A stretch of DNA of 64,000 bases, taken from contig CAVWUU010000002.1 of the NCBI GenBank assembly GCA_963758295.1, forward strand, positions 230,555 to 294,554, given 5' to 3'. The position numbers were made by a program, and so were the translations under genes. Origin of the DNA: Candidatus Eremiobacteria bacterium (GTDB taxonomy: Bacteria > Vulcanimicrobiota > Vulcanimicrobiia > Vulcanimicrobiales > Vulcanimicrobiaceae). Every line of letters begins with the position of its first letter. The stretch's first letter is position 1. The notes under the pieces are model-generated. The model saw only the letters and a program-made list of their open reading frames with translations, was not told where the DNA came from and ran no database searches. Shown here one piece after another: positions 1,752-23,534 of this stretch.

Positions 1752-2234
1752 ATGGCAACCGTACAACGCGTAAATTGGGGCAGCGTCTTTAAAGAAGCTG
1801 TCGCCGCCGGCATCGCCGGTGCAATTCTGATCGAACTCTATCTCGTGCTAACCACCGTGCTGCCGCAACACGGCAGTATAATGGGCATGTTGCAGTGGAC
1901 CGCATCGACGGTGATCGGCAAAGTAGCCTTCACCGGCGCAGCGTACGCGTGGCTTGGGCTCTTAATCCATTTTTGCGTGAGCATCGCTTGGGCCGGCGGC
2001 TACGCGTATCTCGCATCGCAACAGAAATTCATGAACCACCGCTGGGCGATCTCCGGGCTTGTGTACGGGCTGGTCGTTTACGGCTTCATGCAACTGATTT
2101 TGCTGGGCGACAACAACTTGAAGCCGCCCCCGACACCCAACGACTTCATCAATGCGCTGATCGCACACGCCGTGTTCTTCGGCTTGCCGGTTGCATTCGT
2201 CGTGTCGCGTTTCAATCGCACATTCTCGCGATAA
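1752..2234 (+). CDS. Integral membrane protein (about 4 TM helices)
   Basis: 160-aa ORF with four hydrophobic segments. Confidence 0.7.
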   Translation: MATVQRVNWGSVFKEAVAAGIAGAILIELYLVLTTVLPQHGSIMGMLQWTASTVIGKVAFTGAAYAWLGLLIHFCVSIAWAGGYAYLASQQKFMNHRWAISGLVYGLVVYGFMQLILLGDNNLKPPPTPNDFINALIAHAVFFGLPVAFVVSRFNRTFSR

Positions 2235-3000
2235 ACTCTTTTGCGAACTTTGCAGCGACCGTTGCGGTGATGCCGCCGATGTCTTGATCCGGATTGTATT
2301 CCACGACGTCCGCGCCGACTACGTCGCCCGGGATTCGTTTGACGATCTCGAGCACGTCGCGTACGGAAAGACCACCCGGTTCACGATGCGACACGCCTGG
2401 CGCAAACGCGGGATCGAGGCCGTCAAGATCGAGCGATACGTAAACCGGACCGGACGGCAACGCCGCACCCGCCGCCTCTATTTCCCAAGCGCCGAAAACT
2501 TTTACGCCAAAGCCTTCGGCGATTGCTTTTTGCGGCGGGCTCATCGTTCGAATGCCGATCTGCACCAATGCGCTTACCGGCGTGTCTTCCAAAATCCGCG
2601 CGAACGGAGACGCATGTGAGAAGCGATTGCCCTGGAAGCTCGGATACATGTCGGGATGCGCATCGAAATGAACGATGCTCAAATTCGGATAGCGCCGTGC
2701 ATACGCGCGCACGATCGGGTACGTGATCGAGTGGTCGCCGCCGAGCGATAGCACTCGGTTGCCTCGCGCCAGTTCGGCCGCGACGGCAAATTCGATCGTC
2801 GCCCGGTCGCTCTCGTCTTCTTGCAGCGCGACGTCACCGCCGTCCGACATAACGCCCGGAGCCCGCAAGTTGACGCCCGACTCAGCGTACGGATTTTGCG
2901 CGTCGGTTAGGAACTCGGCGCGGATCGCGGCGGGGGCCTTCGCCGGGCCGCGCAGATGCGAGGAGTTCGAGTCGGTCGGAAACCCGAGCATCGTTACCAT
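2212..3000 (-). CDS. speB: Agmatinase / ureohydrolase (arginase family)
   Basis: Motifs GGDHS, DAHPD, SHASPF, DLDGLDP and VEYNP of Mn-dependent ureohydrolases. Substrate is inferred. Confidence 0.8.
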   Translation of the reverse strand: MVTMLGFPTDSNSSHLRGPAKAPAAIRAEFLTDAQNPYAESGVNLRAPGVMSDGGDVALQEDESDRATIEFAVAAELARGNRVLSLGGDHSITYPIVRAYARRYPNLSIVHFDAHPDMYPSFQGNRFSHASPFARILEDTPVSALVQIGIRTMSPPQKAIAEGFGVKVFGAWEIEAAGAALPSGPVYVSLDLDGLDPAFAPGVSHREPGGLSVRDVLEIVKRIPGDVVGADVVEYNPDQDIGGITATVAAKFAKEFIARMCD

Positions 3001-12306: not shown

Positions 12307-13480
12307 TTACTTTGCGCCGACGCGACGATACCGGCCGACGTTTACGATGAGCGCAACGGCCACCAAGTTGACGATCAGCGAACTGCCGCCGAAGGAGATG
12401 AATGGCAGCGGCACGCCGGTAACGGGCCACGACGACGTCACGACGCCGATGTTGATGAAGGCTTGAATCATGATCAACGCAGTGCATCCGAGCGCAAGGA
12501 AAAACCCGAAGCGGTCCGGCGCCCCAATGGCAATTTTCACGGCACGGTACGCGAAGAGCACGAAGAGCGCGAGCACCGCAACGGTTCCCATCAAGCCCAG
12601 CTCTTCGCCGAGAACGGAGAAGATGAAGTCGGTGTACTGCTCGGGGAGATAAAAGAACTTCGCACGCGAAGCGCCGAGGCCCATGCCGAAGAGGCCGCCG
12701 CTTCCCAACGCAAGCAGCGACTGCACGATGTGGAAGCCGGTGTTCTGGGCGTCGCGCCACGGATCGATGAAGGCGAAGATGCGCGCGCGCTTATAAGGGC
12801 TCGCGATAATCGTCAAGATCACCGGCGGCACCGTCGCCGCAAGGATCCAAACGAGATGCATTACTCGTGCGCCGGCCGCAAAGAACATCGTGAATGCCGT
12901 CATCGCGAGCAAACTCGCGGTGCCCATATCCGGCTCGGCGAGCACGAGCACCGCCATAAGAAAGACGGGCAGGCATAAGGGAAACAAGCCCGTTCGGCAA
13001 AGACGTGATACGCTCACCACGCTGCGAAAGCTTCGCGCTCAAGTAGACGATGAGCGCAAGCTTCGCAAATTCGGATGGCTGAAAGCTTACGGACGACGCG
13101 CCGATCCAACGGCGAGCGCCGTTGACCACGATGCCCAGGTGCGGAACAAGCACCATCAGCAACGTGACGATGGACGCGACCAATAGATACGGCGCCGCCT
13201 TTTTCAATTTGTGGTAGTCGATGCGATACGCGCCGTAGGCGCATATGCCGCCGGCGATTAGCCACACGAACTGACGCTTGGCGTAAAATGCCGTGTCGTG
13301 ATGTTCGGAGTACGCCGTCGCGCTCGATGCCGAGTAGATCATCACGAGGCCAATGCCGACGAGCGCGGCGACCGCCGCAAACAACAGCGTATCGGGCGGC
13401 GTCGAAATGTAGGAACGCAGGCCCGAGCTCTCCCGAGGCTCGTACCGCGGCCGTTCGGCAATGCTTCGCGCGTTACGCAC
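12307..13480 (-). CDS. ftsW: SEDS peptidoglycan polymerase FtsW (split by one apparent extra T near 12983)
   Basis: The N-terminal ORF has GARRWI..FQPSEFAK. The C-terminal ORF has EPDMGT, YLPEQYTDFIF and PFISFGGSS. Removing one T from GTTTCCC restores GLVPLCLP. Confidence 0.9.
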
Positions 13481-14874
13481 CGGCAGGTTCCCGCAATGCG
13501 GCTACGGCCGCGACGAATTTTTCGCCCCGGTCTTCGGCCGAACGGAACATGTCGAACGAGGCGCATCCCGGCGAAAGCACCACCACGTCGCCGTGTTTCG
13601 CGAGTTCCCTCGCTTTGCGAACGGCATCGTCCATAGATGCGGCCTGAAGCGTCTTCACGCCGTTTGCCGCTTGGGAAATTTCGCCGGCTGCTTCGCCGAT
13701 CGCAATCAACGCTTTCGCGCGTTGCTTGATCGCGACGCCAAGCTCGATGAAGTCCGTGCCCTTCGAGCGGCCACCGGCGATCAACACGACGGGACGATCG
13801 TACGAGTGAAGCGCCGCGATCACCGAACCCGGATTCGTCGACTTCGAGTCGTCAACGTAGAGCACGCCGTCGATTTCGCCGACCGGTTCGAGCCGGTGCG
13901 GCATCGGCCGGAACGATGCGAGCGCATCGCGCAGCTGAACGGGATCGCATCCAACGGCGAGCGCGGCAAGCATCGCCGCCATGACGTTTTGCACGTTATG
14001 TTCGCCGGCAAGCGGAATATCCGAGCGGCGCAGCAGCCGCACCGGCCGCGGGTCGCCCACAATAGGCGCATACGTAAGCGTCCTCGCCGTGCAAATACAT
14101 CGTCGCATTGTCGTAACGGTCGTGCAGCGTGAACCACAGCTGTCGCGAACGCATGCGCGGTTCGCCCAGCGCTACGTCCAGTGAAGCTACGCGCGCATCA
14201 TCGAGGTTTCCAACGAAAAAATCGCCGGCCGATTGATTGGCGAAAATGCGATACTTCGCTTCCGCGTATTCGTCCATCGAGTGGTAGCGGTCGAGATGGT
14301 CGGGCGCCACATTGAGCAGGACAGCCACGCGCGGCTTGAACGAGCGAATGGTCTCGAGTTGGAACGACGAGACTTCGGCGACAACCCAATCTTCCGGTCG
14401 GGCGCCGAGCACTTCGTTGATGAGCGGATTGCCGATGTTTCCGCCTACGTAAACGGTGCGCCCACACTCCCGCAACAGATGCCCGATGAGCGCCGTCGTC
14501 GTCGACTTGCCTTTGGTACCCGTCACCGCAACGATGGGCGCCTTGCAGAGGCGGTAGGCGATTTCGATCTCACCGAATACGGGAACGTTGTGCTGTTGAA
14601 CGACACGAACGACCGGCGACGTCAACGGAACCCCAGGCGATAGCACTGCCGAGGTAAGCCTTTCGACGATCGAAGAAAGTTCGGACGGCTCGATGAACGT
14701 CGCGCCGCATGACTCGACCGTAGCGATCGCGTCTTCGAGCTCAGCGGGAGGCTTCTCGTCGGTTGCAAACACGGTTACGCCGCGGGAACGCAGGACTTGC
14801 GCCGAGGCAAGTCCACTCTTCCCAAGGCCGATCACGAGCATCGTTTGTTCTGCGTCGAACGTGCCGAGATTCAT
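13473..14874 (-). CDS. murD: UDP-MurNAc-L-Ala--D-glutamate ligase (split by one apparent extra G near 14082)
   Basis: GLGKSG, GTKGKSTT, GNIG, EVSSFQ and DHLDRY are in one frame. HRLE, DDSKSTN and LSPGCASFD are in the next frame. Confidence 0.9.
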
Positions 14875-15833
14875 CGAACGAGTACCCATCCCAGGAGCGA
14901 ACAAAAGAGCGATGCGAACCAAAACCGCGCGGTGACTTTCGTTTCGGGCCAACCGCCGAGTTCAAAGTGATGGTGCAGGGGCGACATGCGGAAGATTCGC
15001 TTTCCGCGCGTCGCTTTGAAATACCCGACTTGCAGAATGACCGAGAGCGCTTCGGCCACGAAGACGGCGCCGATCAATATCAGCAGCAGCATCTCGCCTT
15101 CGAGAATCGCAACGCCCGAGAGCAATGCGCCGAGCGCGAGCGATCCCGTATCGCCCATGAACATTCTCGCCGGGTGGCGATTGTAGATGAGAAATCCGAG
15201 ACACGCGCCGATGCCGAGCAACGAGGCGATACCGGCTGCCGGCATGGTAAGCTCAAACGCGATGGCGGCAAGCACCGCGAGCGGTGGAAGCATCGTTCCC
15301 GTCGCGAGTCCGTCCAAGCCGTCGGTCAGGTTTACCGCGTGGATCGTCCCGGTTACCGCGATGATGCCCAGCACGAGCCAAAGCCAGTGCGGCGCCACAA
15401 GCGCGTACGTTCCGGCGTGAAACAGCACGTCGCGCGGAAAGAGATTGTACGAATCGCCAAGCGCGCGCAAGAAAATAATGGCAAGCAGCGCCGTCGCAAG
15501 ATATTTCGTGCGCGCGCTGAGTCCGAGATTACGGCCGCGACGGATCGCCAGATAATCGTCGATACATCCAACCGCACCACAACCGAGCACCAGCACCGCG
15601 AGCGCCGGCGCAAAAGGCGTATGCCACATCGCAGCCAGCGGCAACATCGCAAGTCCGAAGAGGATACCGCCCATTGTCGGCGTGCCGGTCTTCTTCTGAT
15701 GGGTTTCAGGCGCGTCTTCATAGGCGTGCTGGCGGAACTGCATGCGGCGCAGAAGCGGCAACAGTACTGCACCGCCCGCAACCGCAATGGCGAAGCCGAT
15801 GACGAGGGCTAAAGCCATGGTCGAAAGCGTCAT
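14871..15833 (-). CDS. mraY: Phospho-N-acetylmuramoyl-pentapeptide transferase
   Basis: Motifs KTGTPTMGG, IDD, NLTDGLDG, FMGDTGS and PLHHHFE. Confidence 0.95.
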   Translation of the reverse strand: MTLSTMALALVIGFAIAVAGGAVLLPLLRRMQFRQHAYEDAPETHQKKTGTPTMGGILFGLAMLPLAAMWHTPFAPALAVLVLGCGAVGCIDDYLAIRRGRNLGLSARTKYLATALLAIIFLRALGDSYNLFPRDVLFHAGTYALVAPHWLWLVLGIIAVTGTIHAVNLTDGLDGLATGTMLPPLAVLAAIAFELTMPAAGIASLLGIGACLGFLIYNRHPARMFMGDTGSLALGALLSGVAILEGEMLLLILIGAVFVAEALSVILQVGYFKATRGKRIFRMSPLHHHFELGGWPETKVTARFWFASLFCSLLGWVLVR

Positions 15834-16543
15834 GCGGCTGCGCCCTCTTCACGCAAGAGCGGGTTGCGGCCGCTTGCGCGCCACTTCAAGACGACGATCG
15901 GCGTTTGCTCGTCGCCATTGCCGTGCGGATTATCCAGCAGGGCGCGTTCCACGGTTTCACGATCCACGCCGGTGGATGCGCCGAGCACTTTCGCCTTCTC
16001 CAAATCGTTCGCGTCGACGACGACGCATGCAACGCCCGTTCGTTCGAACACCGCCTGCGAAAACGCATCGGGCTCCCGGGGCGCAAACACGATCGCGCGT
16101 TCGTACGGCGGCAACGTTCCGGTGTACCCGTCGAGCGCCGTAATCGCTTCGCCCATCACTTCGTAAAATACGCCACGCCGGCCGCGCAGACGTCCCAGTA
16201 CGTGCATCACGGCGGCATACACGACCTTCGCCGGGCCGACTTCGTCGATGACGAGTTGCAGCGATTCCGGTTGATTGACTGTGGCCAGCGCCCCCGCACG
16301 GCGCGACAGCGCATAGGCGAGTTTGGAAGGGCGCACGTACTCGGCGGGAACGAACTCGCCTTGCGCGATGGCGACGGCTGTTTCCGAAATGGCGATCGCG
16401 TCGCCGGGACGCGCGATACCGTTCACGGCATCCGAAACGATGGAAAGCAAATCATCGCCCGGACGAACCAAACGCGTACGAACCGGAATTGCGACGAGTC
16501 CTGGCGGGACTTCGGGACGGGTAACGGCAAGCGTGCGGCTCAT
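15830..16543 (-). CDS. CofE-like (coenzyme F420-0:gamma-glutamyl ligase family) amide ligase of unknown substrate
   Basis: Motifs TRLVRPGDDL, AISETAVAIAQG, LDGYTGTLPPY, VVVDANDL and LLDNPHGNGDEQTPIVV resemble the F420_ligase family (recognised from memory, not searched). ATGA overlaps with murF and mraY. Confidence 0.7.
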   Translation of the reverse strand: MSRTLAVTRPEVPPGLVAIPVRTRLVRPGDDLLSIVSDAVNGIARPGDAIAISETAVAIAQGEFVPAEYVRPSKLAYALSRRAGALATVNQPESLQLVIDEVGPAKVVYAAVMHVLGRLRGRRGVFYEVMGEAITALDGYTGTLPPYERAIVFAPREPDAFSQAVFERTGVACVVVDANDLEKAKVLGASTGVDRETVERALLDNPHGNGDEQTPIVVLKWRASGRNPLLREEGAAA

Positions 16544-17916
16544 CCGCGGAACTCCTCGACGATTTCTTCTAATTTGTATTTTCGGGAGCCCTTAAGCAAA
16601 ACCGCATCACCCCGACAAGCATTTACGCGCAGCCACTGCGCCGCTTCGCTATTCGAGCCAAATCGGAAAATGCGCTCCGAGGCAAGCCCTGCATTATGCG
16701 CGCCGAGCGCAAGCTCGTCTGCGAAGTCGCCGCCGAATAGCGCGACGTCGACGTGTATCGCCGCGGTATGCGCGCCGACGCGGCGATGCAGTTGTGCCGC
16801 TTCGTCCCCAAGCTCGGCCATACTGGAGAGCAAAGCAATACGCCGTCTCGCCGGCTCGGCAGCAAAGGCATCGAGCGCTGCAATCGTACCGCTTGCATTG
16901 GCGTTATACGCGTCGTAGATCAGCCGGATACCGTCCACGTCGATCGCTTCGTAACGCCCTTTCGGCAGCTCGATCGTTTCCATTGCGTGCGCAACCTCTC
17001 CAAAGTCCGCACCGAGTTCCAACGCTGCAGCGGCGGCTGCCGCCAAGTTGGAACGGTTGTGATCGCCTGGAACGGTAAGGTTTACCGCGCACTCGCGAAC
17101 GACGCCGTCGAAGCGGTGCACGAACCAATCGCGGCCCAACAGGGCGGTGAGTCTCGAACGTAACGGCATGGTCGCGCCCGGCGCGCCGGCCAAAAACCAG
17201 TGCGGCGCTTCCGGCAACGTCGACGCGCGCGCGCGCGATGCTCGATCGCATTCATTGACGATCGCACGTGCGCCCGTTTCAAAGATCGACCACTTCGTCG
17301 TTTCGAGCCGCTCGCGCGAGCCCATGATTTCCAAGTGCGCGTCACCGACATTCGTGAGGACCGCAACATCCGGTTTCGCAATTTCGGTAAGGACGGCGAT
17401 GTCGCCGTAGTGGCGCGCGCCCATCTCCACGACGAGTACGTCGTGATCTTCGTTCGACGCGTTCAGCAATAATTTGCTTACGCCGATTTCATTGTTTTCG
17501 TTCGCCGGCGCGGCCAAAACCCGATCGCCGTAACGCGTGGCGAGCAGTTGCGCGGTGAAAAACTTCGTCGTCGTCTTGCCGGCGCTGCCGGTGATTGCGA
17601 CGACCCGGCCGGTGAAACGGTCACGCGCCAAACCTGCAAGCGTCATGTACGCTCTCAACGTATCTTTAACTAGCAGCGCCGTTGCACTGGGCGGCAGCAC
17701 CGACGCATCGTCGACAACGAATGCAGCTGCACCCTTCTCCGCCGCTTCCGCAACGAAGGCATGACCGTCAAAGTGTTCGCCTCGGAGCGCCAAAAACGTA
17801 TCGCCGGGTTGCAACGAACGCGTGTCCGTCGTAATACGAAGCAACGCCGGTGCGCGATCGGCGTTGATGACGGAGGCACCCGCTGAAGCACGCGCATCTT
17901 CGAACGCCAGCTTCAC
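16540..17916 (-). CDS. murF: UDP-MurNAc-tripeptide--D-Ala-D-Ala ligase
   Basis: Motifs TDTR, FDGH, ITGSAGKTTTK, NNEIG, EMGA, DAYNAN and KGSR. Confidence 0.95.
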   Translation of the reverse strand: MKLAFEDARASAGASVINADRAPALLRITTDTRSLQPGDTFLALRGEHFDGHAFVAEAAEKGAAAFVVDDASVLPPSATALLVKDTLRAYMTLAGLARDRFTGRVVAITGSAGKTTTKFFTAQLLATRYGDRVLAAPANENNEIGVSKLLLNASNEDHDVLVVEMGARHYGDIAVLTEIAKPDVAVLTNVGDAHLEIMGSRERLETTKWSIFETGARAIVNECDRASRARASTLPEAPHWFLAGAPGATMPLRSRLTALLGRDWFVHRFDGVVRECAVNLTVPGDHNRSNLAAAAAAALELGADFGEVAHAMETIELPKGRYEAIDVDGIRLIYDAYNANASGTIAALDAFAAEPARRRIALLSSMAELGDEAAQLHRRVGAHTAAIHVDVALFGGDFADELALGAHNAGLASERIFRFGSNSEAAQWLRVNACRGDAVLLKGSRKYKLEEIVEEFRG

Positions 17917-19370
17917 GCGTGGGTCTCCCGCCGAATCAACGCGCGCCGCGCCACCGCGACGTCATCGAACGGCAGCGTTTCAGCACCGACGATCTGGTAC
18001 GTCTCATGCCCTTTGCCGGCGATCAGCACAACGTCACCGGGGTGTGCTTCAAGAATGGCGCGTTCGATTGCTGCACGACGATCGGGTTCAACCGTATGGG
18101 CGCGACGGCCCAAACCGCCTTCGATTTCGTGGATGATCGTCAACGGGTCTTCACTGCGCGGATTGTCGTTGGTCAAATAGATACGATCGGCCGTAGCGGC
18201 TGCGACCCGTCCCATTTCGGGGCGCTTTCCGCGATCGCGATCGCCGCCGCAGCCGAACACGACCGAGAGATGATGCGGATGCGCCTCGCGCAAAGCCTTA
18301 AGCGCATGCTCTAATGCATCGGGCGTGTGCGCGTAGTCGACGACGACGTCGACGTCCGCCACCCCAACGTGTTCCATACGCCCCGGGACGCGTTCCAACG
18401 TCGCAAGCCCATGCGCGCTGCTCTTGTCTTCGATGCCCAGCGTGCGCGCTACGGCGATAGCCGCGAGCGCGTTACTTATGTTGAAGCGGCCGGGCATCGC
18501 AATTGAAAACTTCGTTCTGTCCAGATCGAAGCGGCTGCCGCTCGTCGTGGCTTCGACTTGCGACGGGACCAAATCCGCACCTAGACGCAGCCCATATGTC
18601 GTCACCGGAATGCGTCCGCGCAGTTGGGCCGCCCATCGTTCACCGTACGGATCGTCGGCATTCAATACGGCGGCTTCGGTCATCGCGAAGAGCCGGTGCT
18701 TTGCTGCGGCATAGGCTTCGACCGTCTCGTGAAAGTCGAGATGGTCCCGCGTAACGTTCGTTAGCGCGGCAACGCGGAAGCGAATATCTTCAACGCGATC
18801 GAGCGCCAGCGCATGCGAGCTTACTTCCATTGCAACGCCTTGCGCGCCCGCGTCGCGCATCTGTGCCAAGAGCGAATGAAGTTCCGGCGGCAGCGGCGTC
18901 GTATTCGCGAGGGGCCAGGTTCGCTCGCCCAATTCCGCGCCGACCGTTCCGATAACGCCGCACGGACGTCCCGCGGCGTTACAGATCGCCGCAATCATCC
19001 GCGTTACCGTCGTCTTGCCGTTGGTTCCCGTCACGCCCGCTACATCAAGTACGTGCGAAGGATCGCCGTAAAACGCGGCCGCGATCGTAGATAACGCGCG
19101 GCGCGTATCGGGAACGTAGACGACCGTTGCATCGCCTGGGGGTACGGCGCGGCCTTGCTTTACAACGATAGCCGATGCGCCATTCGCAATGGCTTGCGCT
19201 ACGAAGGCGTGGCCGTCGGCGTGCTCGCCGGCAATCGCAACAAAGAGCGACCCGGGACGAACTTCGCGCGAATCGAGCGTCACGGCTTCAATCTTGATTG
19301 AGGTATCACCGGCAAATTCCGTTGCCGCCGGTAAACGGCCCACGAGCGCTTGGAGTTCTACCGCGCTCAC
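17913..19370 (-). CDS. murE: UDP-MurNAc-dipeptide--meso-DAP ligase
   Basis: Motifs VTGTNGKTT, MEVSSH, DHLDFH, VDYAHTPD, FGCGGDRD and GKGHE. DNPR is the meso-DAP specificity motif. Confidence 0.95.
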   Translation of the reverse strand: MSAVELQALVGRLPAATEFAGDTSIKIEAVTLDSREVRPGSLFVAIAGEHADGHAFVAQAIANGASAIVVKQGRAVPPGDATVVYVPDTRRALSTIAAAFYGDPSHVLDVAGVTGTNGKTTVTRMIAAICNAAGRPCGVIGTVGAELGERTWPLANTTPLPPELHSLLAQMRDAGAQGVAMEVSSHALALDRVEDIRFRVAALTNVTRDHLDFHETVEAYAAAKHRLFAMTEAAVLNADDPYGERWAAQLRGRIPVTTYGLRLGADLVPSQVEATTSGSRFDLDRTKFSIAMPGRFNISNALAAIAVARTLGIEDKSSAHGLATLERVPGRMEHVGVADVDVVVDYAHTPDALEHALKALREAHPHHLSVVFGCGGDRDRGKRPEMGRVAAATADRIYLTNDNPRSEDPLTIIHEIEGGLGRRAHTVEPDRRAAIERAILEAHPGDVVLIAGKGHETYQIVGAETLPFDDVAVARRALIRRETHA

Positions 19371-21605: not shown

Positions 21606-22479
21606 CTAACTGGCCTTCCGTTGCGCCGCGCGCATCTTTGCACTCCGTGCGCGCGGATTGTTCGCCATTTCTTGATCGCTGGGAAGTAGCGGCTTCTTGG
21701 TGAGAACGTTCAGCCGCTCGTCGCCGCGAAAGGTTTGCTTCACGATGCGATCCTCAAGCGAGTGAAAGCTTATGACCACCACGCGCCCCGCGCCTCGAAG
21801 CTGATCGATGGCCGAGGTGAGCCCTTCGCGCAGAACGTCTAGCTCGTCGTTCACGGCTATGCGCAACGCCTGGAAGACGCGCGTCGCCGGATGAATACGC
21901 TCGCGCTTGCCCGGACGGTGGACGATGCCGGCCACCATCTGCGCGAATTCCGTCGTGGTCGTCGGCAAGCGGCCCCGAGTTGCGCCGTTCCACGATGGCG
22001 TGCGCAATCCGACGCGCGGCGCGCTCTTCACCGTAGTAATAGAAGATGTCCGCGAGCTCGCTCTCGCTCGCCGTGTTCAGGACTTCGTAAGCACTCTGCC
22101 CCTTATGCGGATCCATTCGCATGTCGAGCGGAGCAGACTCACGGAAAGAAAAGCCTCGGCTTGCATCATCCAGCTGCATCGACGAAACCCCCAAATCGAA
22201 AAGCACTCCGTCCACGAACTCCACGCCGCACTCGTCGAGGACGCGACGAAGCTCCGAGAAGTTGGCTTGAACGAAGGTGAACGACGGATGCTCGATTGCC
22301 CGTGCGCGATCCACCGCGTGCGGATCCGCATCGATGGCGATGAGGCGTCCCGTATCCAAGCGGTCCAAGATCGCTCGCGTGTGCCCGCCCGCACCAAACG
22401 TCGCATCGACGTAAATCCCATCCGGCCGGATCGCCAGATACTCCAGCGCCGGCTCCAATAGCACCGAAACGTGATTCAT
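21606..22479 (-). CDS. rsmH: 16S rRNA m4C1402 methyltransferase (split by one apparent extra G near 21975)
   Basis: HVSVLL, DATFGAGGH, DLGVSSMQLD and PLDMRM are in one frame. HPATRVFQALRI, SFHSLEDR and NPRARSAK are in the next frame. Confidence 0.9.
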
Positions 22480-23177: not shown

Positions 23178-23534
23178 ATGGCGGAACGTAGGACTCTTCG
23201 TATGGCGGCCGGCGTCAGACTCATCAAATCCCTCACCGGGTTCACGAGCGTTCGCTCAAAATTGTGGCAAGCTGTCGCAAACGCCACTGATCGCTGGCAG
23301 CTGCAAGACGCCAAAGCACAATTTAGCGAGGTCGTGCAGCGCGCGCTCGACGGCAAACCGCAGTGCGTAACGAAACACGGACGAGACGCGGTACTCGTTA
23401 TTGCGTACGACACTCTCGTCGACGCGGTTCGCCCAAAGCAGAACCTTTTCGACTTCTTCCAATCGTCACCATTGGTCGCGGTTGATCTCGATTTGGATCG
23501 CTTACCTGGCGACGTTCGCGAGATCGACCTTTGA
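23178..23534 (+). CDS. Phd/YefM family antitoxin
   Basis: WQLQDAKAQFSEVVQRA..PQCVTKHG. Overlaps the start of the PIN toxin gene. Confidence 0.85.
   Translation: MAERRTLRMAAGVRLIKSLTGFTSVRSKLWQAVANATDRWQLQDAKAQFSEVVQRALDGKPQCVTKHGRDAVLVIAYDTLVDAVRPKQNLFDFFQSSPLVAVDLDLDRLPGDVREIDL

Follow-up and report, generated by a model that had tools for sequence, protein, structure and literature searches.

We propose that a gene of 237 codons, here called gene X, which lies between murF and mraY in the dcw cluster of the window (the whole 64-kb stretch of DNA analysed here), encodes a putative NTP-dependent ligase that probably links an amine through an amide bond to the alpha-carboxyl of D-Glu in a peptidoglycan precursor. 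That the protein acts on peptidoglycan precursors in some form is the safer claim, and we regard it as highly likely. X is a real gene, core to its class, and it is no F420 enzyme. A role in attaching an amine is likely because its relatives track bacteria that carry a polyamine or glycine on cell-wall D-Glu. The genome holding the window (G000, 82% complete) has its closest named relatives in the Vulcanimicrobiota (Eremiobacterota), a phylum of soil bacteria.

The dcw cluster is encoded on the minus strand of the window, on which all features given in this paragraph lie. Here, murE (17913..19370; TIGR01085, 511 bits; NF001126 and NF001124 also above cut-off) has meso-DAP-adding models as its top matches, and murF (16540..17916) and mraY (14871..15833) were identified by TIGR01143 (350 bits, cut-off 288.6) and TIGR00445 (268.8 bits, cut-off 192), respectively. 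Gene X itself (15830..16543; 237 aa, ATG start) was assigned as a CofE-fold putative amide ligase from the ORF, its PF01996 match and the predicted structure. The murF stop overlaps the start of X and the mraY start overlaps its stop, in each case by ATGA, so that the arrangement given in the preliminary description agrees with the coordinates. An RBS-like GAGGAG (16552..16557), as read from the sequence, is found within the 3' end of murF, 8 nt ahead of the X start. The F420_ligase-like motifs claimed for this ORF (SETAVAIAQG, LDG, VDAND and DNPHGNGDEQTP) are present in the translation, and the conserved motifs of X comprise S53-E54, D138, D177-x-N179-D180 and N205-P-H-G-N209.

Within the phylum, a match to X was obtained in 151 of 151 genomes, a tally that counts the unpublished genome G110. 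Of 119 related loci, the best 80 all place X immediately between murF (upstream) and mraY (downstream), with the 4-nt overlap kept at 74 upstream and 61 downstream junctions; since this order holds throughout, the arrangement is not due to chance, and the dcw linkage on which the original proposal depended is conserved in relatives. Mean identity to the proteins of G000 in these best 80 loci is 76.8% for X, 67.6% for MraY and 57.7% for MurF, a gap that is inflated because the loci were picked by similarity to X. The same gene order is kept in eight of eight more distant loci of the class. Two of these eight, from genus g41, are fusions of MurF with X (L095 and L096, 739 and 744 aa), and a third (P0124) came from the search of representatives. 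In the other classes of the phylum, all 12 fetched loci hold a form of about 400 aa that carries an extra N-terminal domain and lies outside the dcw cluster, with no mur genes nearby; G000 yielded no match to this N-terminal partner domain.

The AlphaFold2 model of X (pLDDT 92.3) was compared with 48,161 chains by VIA, where CofE (2PHN) alone scored above Z 5 (Z 14.2, rmsd 3.3, 182 aligned residues, TM ~0.58), and Foldseek matched the two at E 5.6e-10. A CofE fold, as asked for in the preliminary description, is therefore predicted, in common with the CofE/FbiB N-terminal domain (PF01996, TIGR01916; PDB 2PHN, 2G9I, 7ULD). The profile match to CofE has a probability of 97% over 143 columns and places the acidic motifs at equivalent positions, although identity is only 18–23%. 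When alignments with Archaeoglobus fulgidus CofE were compared by eye, D138 corresponded to D109, D177-A-N179 to D150-T-N152 and G208-N209 to G207-E208; in CofE, these motifs hold metal ligands. D138, D177, N179 and D180 are retained in at least 90% of 44 X sequences (27–64% identity), whereas CofE K45 is not kept (I59 in X) and E208 is replaced by N/Q in the X family. Moreover, X is about 28 residues shorter than CofE between the equivalents of D150 and G207, i.e., after D177, and the missing stretch takes in CofE G153-C155 and probably also the domain-swapped hairpin, which the available text of PMC10861534 describes as F420 contacts. By comparison of the sequences, X appears to lack these F420-binding elements (the G153-C155 segment, the hairpin and R234), and loss of the F420 site is predicted. 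No match of X to a Mur-ligase fold or a MurT_C domain was obtained in Pfam and NCBIfam searches.

X matches Pfam PF01996 (E 2.6e-13, 50.5 bits, cut-off 25) over profile positions 2–112 of 218 only, which bears out the family assignment made earlier, and it is the sole PF01996 match in G000; among 14 control genomes, matches were confined to three archaea, and some forms of X escape this profile. Scores against the equivalog models stay far below their cut-offs (TIGR01916, 28.1 bits against 180.65; NF009809, 28.2 against 274). CofC was not found in G000, and its single CofD-family match was rejected as an F420 CofD, being YvcK (377 bits, cut-off 196), next to a gene that we read as rapZ. True CofD was found in none of 100 genomes searched of the same class, but in 31 of the 51 remaining genomes of the phylum sample, and all five CofD-bearing genomes tested own a separate CofE above cut-off. 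A complete F420 pathway with X as its only ligase is thus not seen, as searches found no CofC in the 82% complete G000 and no CofD in the class.

The distribution of X can be set against known wall chemistry. All 111 Negativicutes genomes, including Selenomonas ruminantium and Anaerovibrio lipolyticus, encode one full-length copy, and a conserved feature of this class is that the D-Glu alpha-carboxyl carries polyamines, according to the accessible parts of PMC5020339 and PMC10628300; the portion available of a preprint (10.1101/2021.05.31.446380) agrees on this linkage. Because the Negativicutes are kin, 111 of 111 may represent a single event. Fusions of AsnB with X were found in Intrasporangium calvum, Terrabacter and Knoellia, and the wall of I. 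calvum carries glycine on the D-Glu alpha-carboxyl (PMC3035309, in the part available); here, the attached glycine could be what the AsnB domain amidates. Two taxa that substitute the D-Glu alpha-carboxyl, the Negativicutes and I. calvum, thus carry X, and the phyletic match extends beyond diamines to a glycine-substituted wall. The match to diamine-linked walls suggested earlier consequently stands for the Negativicutes, S. ruminantium among them, but not for glaucophytes, of which, as of angiosperms, no copy was seen among the named eukaryotic rows. These rows include the streptophyte algae Closterium and Klebsormidium, mosses, liverworts, a lycophyte, ferns and the conifer Cryptomeria, as well as the prasinophyte algae Chloropicon, Micromonas and Pycnococcus. 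Plastid peptidoglycan is described from glaucophytes through ferns, with N-acetylputrescine on residue 2 of the stem in glaucophytes and unmodified UDP-precursors in moss (PMC9434261, as far as its text was available).

Elsewhere, X is patchy, occurring in 28 of 121 Cyanobacteriota and 27 of 221 Actinomycetales genomes, 19 of the latter 27 in long fusion frames. In four of the Actinomycetales fusions (L204, L207, L208, L209) the X match begins at profile position 43, and no Asn_synthase match was obtained in the portion of L204 that was scanned. Copies are also present in Erysipelothrix tonsillarum, in 53 of 61 Microbacterium genomes and in 16 of 111 Microbacteriaceae. Microbacterium and Erysipelothrix build group B walls in which Gly comes first in the bridge, a trait that several other Microbacteriaceae genera do not share. 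A literature search on group B or Gly-first walls of X-bearing genera returned nothing, and X as a general group B bridge enzyme was rejected because it is found in just those 16 of 111 Microbacteriaceae. A link to diderm Bacillota as a whole was likewise dropped, with X in 27 of 61 LpxC-positive genomes (no association, p 0.18); a query from Selenomonadaceae matched nothing in five LpxC-positive genomes that lack X. In the literature searched, no report on the wall chemistry of Vulcanimicrobiota was found.

For the neighbourhoods of distant relatives, a two-domain query retrieved 79 loci; murB lies downstream of X in 13 of these, and mreC and mrdA flank it in four, all from Cloacimonadota and set within mreBCD-mrdA-rodA. 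Two records, titled Calditrichales (L111) and Caulobacteraceae (L169), show a Clostridia-type X-murB neighbourhood and are possibly mis-binned. Three further sets were inspected, the genomes within each being kin. Near X, 40 hand-picked Bacillota loci hold a wall amidase in 16 cases, murI in ten, a GatD-like gene in six and, in two, a decarboxylase for basic amino acids; 80 Selenomonadaceae loci hold murI in 49 and a partner gene of 180 aa in 79; and in 80 cyanobacterial loci mltG is found in 45 and a weak GNAT match after X in 61. The latter belongs to a conserved protein of 444 aa (L387:5410-6741), which could make an N-acetylated polyamine. The partner domain (about 180 aa; L240:5623-6171 and the N-termini of L092 and P0392) has a hydrophobic N-terminus and the motif R-x-D-[GD]-Y-[WF]-E, and it is a separate gene in Negativicutes and fused to X in cyanobacteria, plants and the other classes of the phylum. 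It has no match in Pfam or NCBIfam, and an Atlas search returned only unnamed clusters; nor does NCBIfam offer a family above cut-off that names the domain in the Negativicutes, cyanobacterial or other forms of X. A plasmid search with X gave no match, nor did a genome scan in which an algal homologue served as query. In Leucobacter and Microcella, ATPgrasp_ST genes adjoin X (L122:6069-7127 and L117:3912-4931) and could be the genes through which group B bridges receive their diamino acid.

Fusions were surveyed in 49 relatives, mostly longer ones, taken from the 150 representatives listed of 738 at E 0.001. X was fused to TPRs in nine, to AsnB or GATase in eight and to Amidase_3 in six, and once each to MurF, PlsY, GNAT, an HD domain and a deacetylase.

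On the preferred reading, X would activate the free alpha-carboxyl of stem D-Glu with the help of a nucleoside triphosphate and a divalent metal. By analogy with CofE, for which the available text of PMC10861534 gives GTP- and Mn-dependent activation of a carboxylate to an acyl phosphate, an acyl-phosphate intermediate would then be attacked by the amine. Gene context suggests the finished pentapeptide as substrate, in the form of UDP-MurNAc-pentapeptide or lipid I/II, and the taxa with known walls point to D-Glu at stem position 2 as the target. The target carboxyl and the precursor stage would be the same as those of the lipid II D-Glu amidotransferase MurT/GatD (PMC3266927, in the part accessible), although MurT has a Mur-ligase fold with an ammonia-supplying glutaminase and is not homologous to X. 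Strict competition of X and MurT for one carboxyl would therefore lead to mutual exclusion, which is absent: across 301 Bacillota genomes, X is present in 109 (leaving out G512 with a partial match), MurT in 112 and both in 37, so that MurT occurs in 37 of 109 X-positive and 75 of 192 X-negative genomes and the two are independent (p 0.39). Where both are present, MurT might amidate leftover sites or the added residue. MurT was found in none of 61 genomes of the class of G000 and in none of four Selenomonadaceae. The earlier suggestion of an amine ligated to the stem peptide is thus partly supported, by the predicted fold, the class in which no F420 pathway was found, the dcw linkage and the match to Negativicutes, but the exclusion of MurT expected from it failed.

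This free co-occurrence with MurT is one of the points in favour of the strongest alternative, in which X ligates an amine or amino acid to another carboxyl, such as the meso-DAP side chain or the terminal D-Ala, or to stem peptides released by amidases during recycling. AsnB homologues amidate meso-DAP in other taxa, and the AsnB/GATase and amidase fusions described above, together with a MurE of DAP type in this cluster, would suit such a role. We nevertheless consider it unlikely, since the taxa with documented walls carry their extra group on D-Glu, murI is linked to X in 49 of 80 Selenomonadaceae loci and, as noted, the AsnB domain of I. calvum could instead amidate an added glycine.

Still less probable is a ligase for a substrate other than peptidoglycan (a polyamine conjugate, a secondary wall polymer or a lipid) that was recruited to envelope operons. 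The TPR, PlsY, GNAT and deacetylase fusions, the two basic amino acid decarboxylase neighbours and the 12 two-domain loci of the phylum lying away from mur genes are in line with it, and a CofE-like gene, qimC, is known from a wall-carbohydrate operon of Streptococcus pyogenes (PMC12803152, as far as available). QimC, which was set beside X by description only, shares with it a CofE-like nature and an envelope operon, but its operon makes a carbohydrate-type modification. Against a substrate of this kind stand several separate insertions of X into peptidoglycan operons and its persistence in those plant lineages for which plastid peptidoglycan is reported.

A regulatory role of X, as a non-catalytic CofE-fold nucleotide binder acting as a precursor sensor or as a scaffold for MurF and MraY, appears similarly improbable to us. 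The replacement of K45 and E208, the tight translational overlap and the MurF fusions would fit, and YvcK offers a precedent within G000 itself, YvcK/GlmR being a wall regulator related to CofD. However, the high retention of D138, D177, N179 and D180 and the fusions of X to other modifying enzymes speak against such a role. A true F420-0:L-glutamate ligase, finally, in keeping with names such as 'coenzyme F420-0:L-glutamate ligase' borne by the source records, the PF01996 match and the predicted fold, is largely refuted and was rejected on account of the TIGR01916 score of 28 bits against 180.65, the missing CofD (0/100) and CofC, the separate CofE in five of five CofD-positive relatives and the absence of the F420-contact elements.

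Returning to an amide ligase acting on D-Glu, the identity of the amine was approached through sequence types. In a tree of 76 X sequences, a group of 30 members (support 99/95) holds Microbacterium, Erysipelothrix and Intrasporangium and mostly shows E-K, a long GIGL loop and DG-P, whereas the other type, with E-S/T and a short loop, comprises Negativicutes, cyanobacteria, plants and the query. The E-S/T type is also that of all 120 close relatives of X, none of which has E-K. The query clade (100/100) joins amidase- and decarboxylase-linked forms of Bacillota (95/91) on a long branch, and AU tests rejected neither its placement with the glycine type (p 0.29) nor with Negativicutes (p 0.18). 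Since X shares the E-S/T short-loop type with the Negativicutes and not the E-K type of the glycine taxa, a polyamine or diamine is favoured here over glycine: within the D-Glu reading we hold the former to be somewhat likelier, both assignments being tentative, with a polyamine slightly favoured, not established. G000 encodes SpeD, a SpeE-like protein and an agmatinase, which scores above cut-off for TIGR01230 and whose gene (2212-3000 of the window, minus strand) lies some 13 kb from X; a search for AsnB in this genome found none.

A polyamine-based tether for SLH proteins was considered as the purpose of X in this class and is weakened by the distribution of envelope genes. CsaB is present in five of five class genomes (four above cut-off; split in G000) and SLH domains in 24 of 41 relatives, a count that includes the unpublished G1071, but SLH was not found in G000. 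A polyamine tether is thus not needed for the envelope here, CsaB being present and SLH not found in G000. Three relatives (L458, L460, L461) encode large OmpM-like proteins with a single SLH domain in frames of 550–1000 aa, which gave no tblastn match in G000.

On a broader scale, we put forward, with considerable reservation, that this CofE-fold family, mislabelled as F420 ligase, might be the missing D-Glu alpha-carboxyl ligase of bacteria and plastids, with a polyamine and a glycine branch. The polyamine branch could account for the outer-membrane tether of Negativicutes and for a modification so far overlooked in Vulcanimicrobiota, in some cyanobacteria and in the chloroplast walls of mosses, ferns and algae; the glycine branch could account for the substitution in Intrasporangium and for the residue that starts the bridge in Microbacterium and Erysipelothrix. 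The chemistry proposed for X is the same as that of the polyamine transfer in Negativicutes and the N-acetylputrescine transfer in Cyanophora cyanelles. In the former, X is accompanied by a partner gene that G000 is without, while for the latter the cyanobacterial order of X followed by the weak GNAT match (61 of 80) compares with the lack of a glaucophyte copy among the named rows. No gene for transfer of a polyamine or N-acetylputrescine to D-Glu was named in the literature searched, and a search thin on subscription and older papers found no report of a CofE-like protein linked to peptidoglycan. That polyamines are attached to peptidoglycan was already known in 1981 (see the references cited by PMC10628300, in the part available). 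Polyamine on peptidoglycan underlies outer-membrane anchoring in Negativicutes, for which the X family provides a single candidate gene. It likewise provides a candidate for the glycine substitution of D-Glu in actinobacteria and predicts a stem-peptide modification in plastid peptidoglycan, a step conjectured, not identified, in the text of PMC9434261 as far as it was available. Moreover, thousands of 'F420 ligase' annotations in F420-less genomes would need correction.

Apart from gene X, the window shows frameshifts in murD (14050-14078), ftsW (12977-12993) and an rsmH-like gene (21967-21974), all of which are intact in the related locus L003; together with the split csaB of G000, they are probably assembly indels. 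Directly upstream of the dcw cluster, between positions 23178 and 26964, the ORF list reads as a Phd/VapC-like toxin-antitoxin pair and two transposase-like ORFs.
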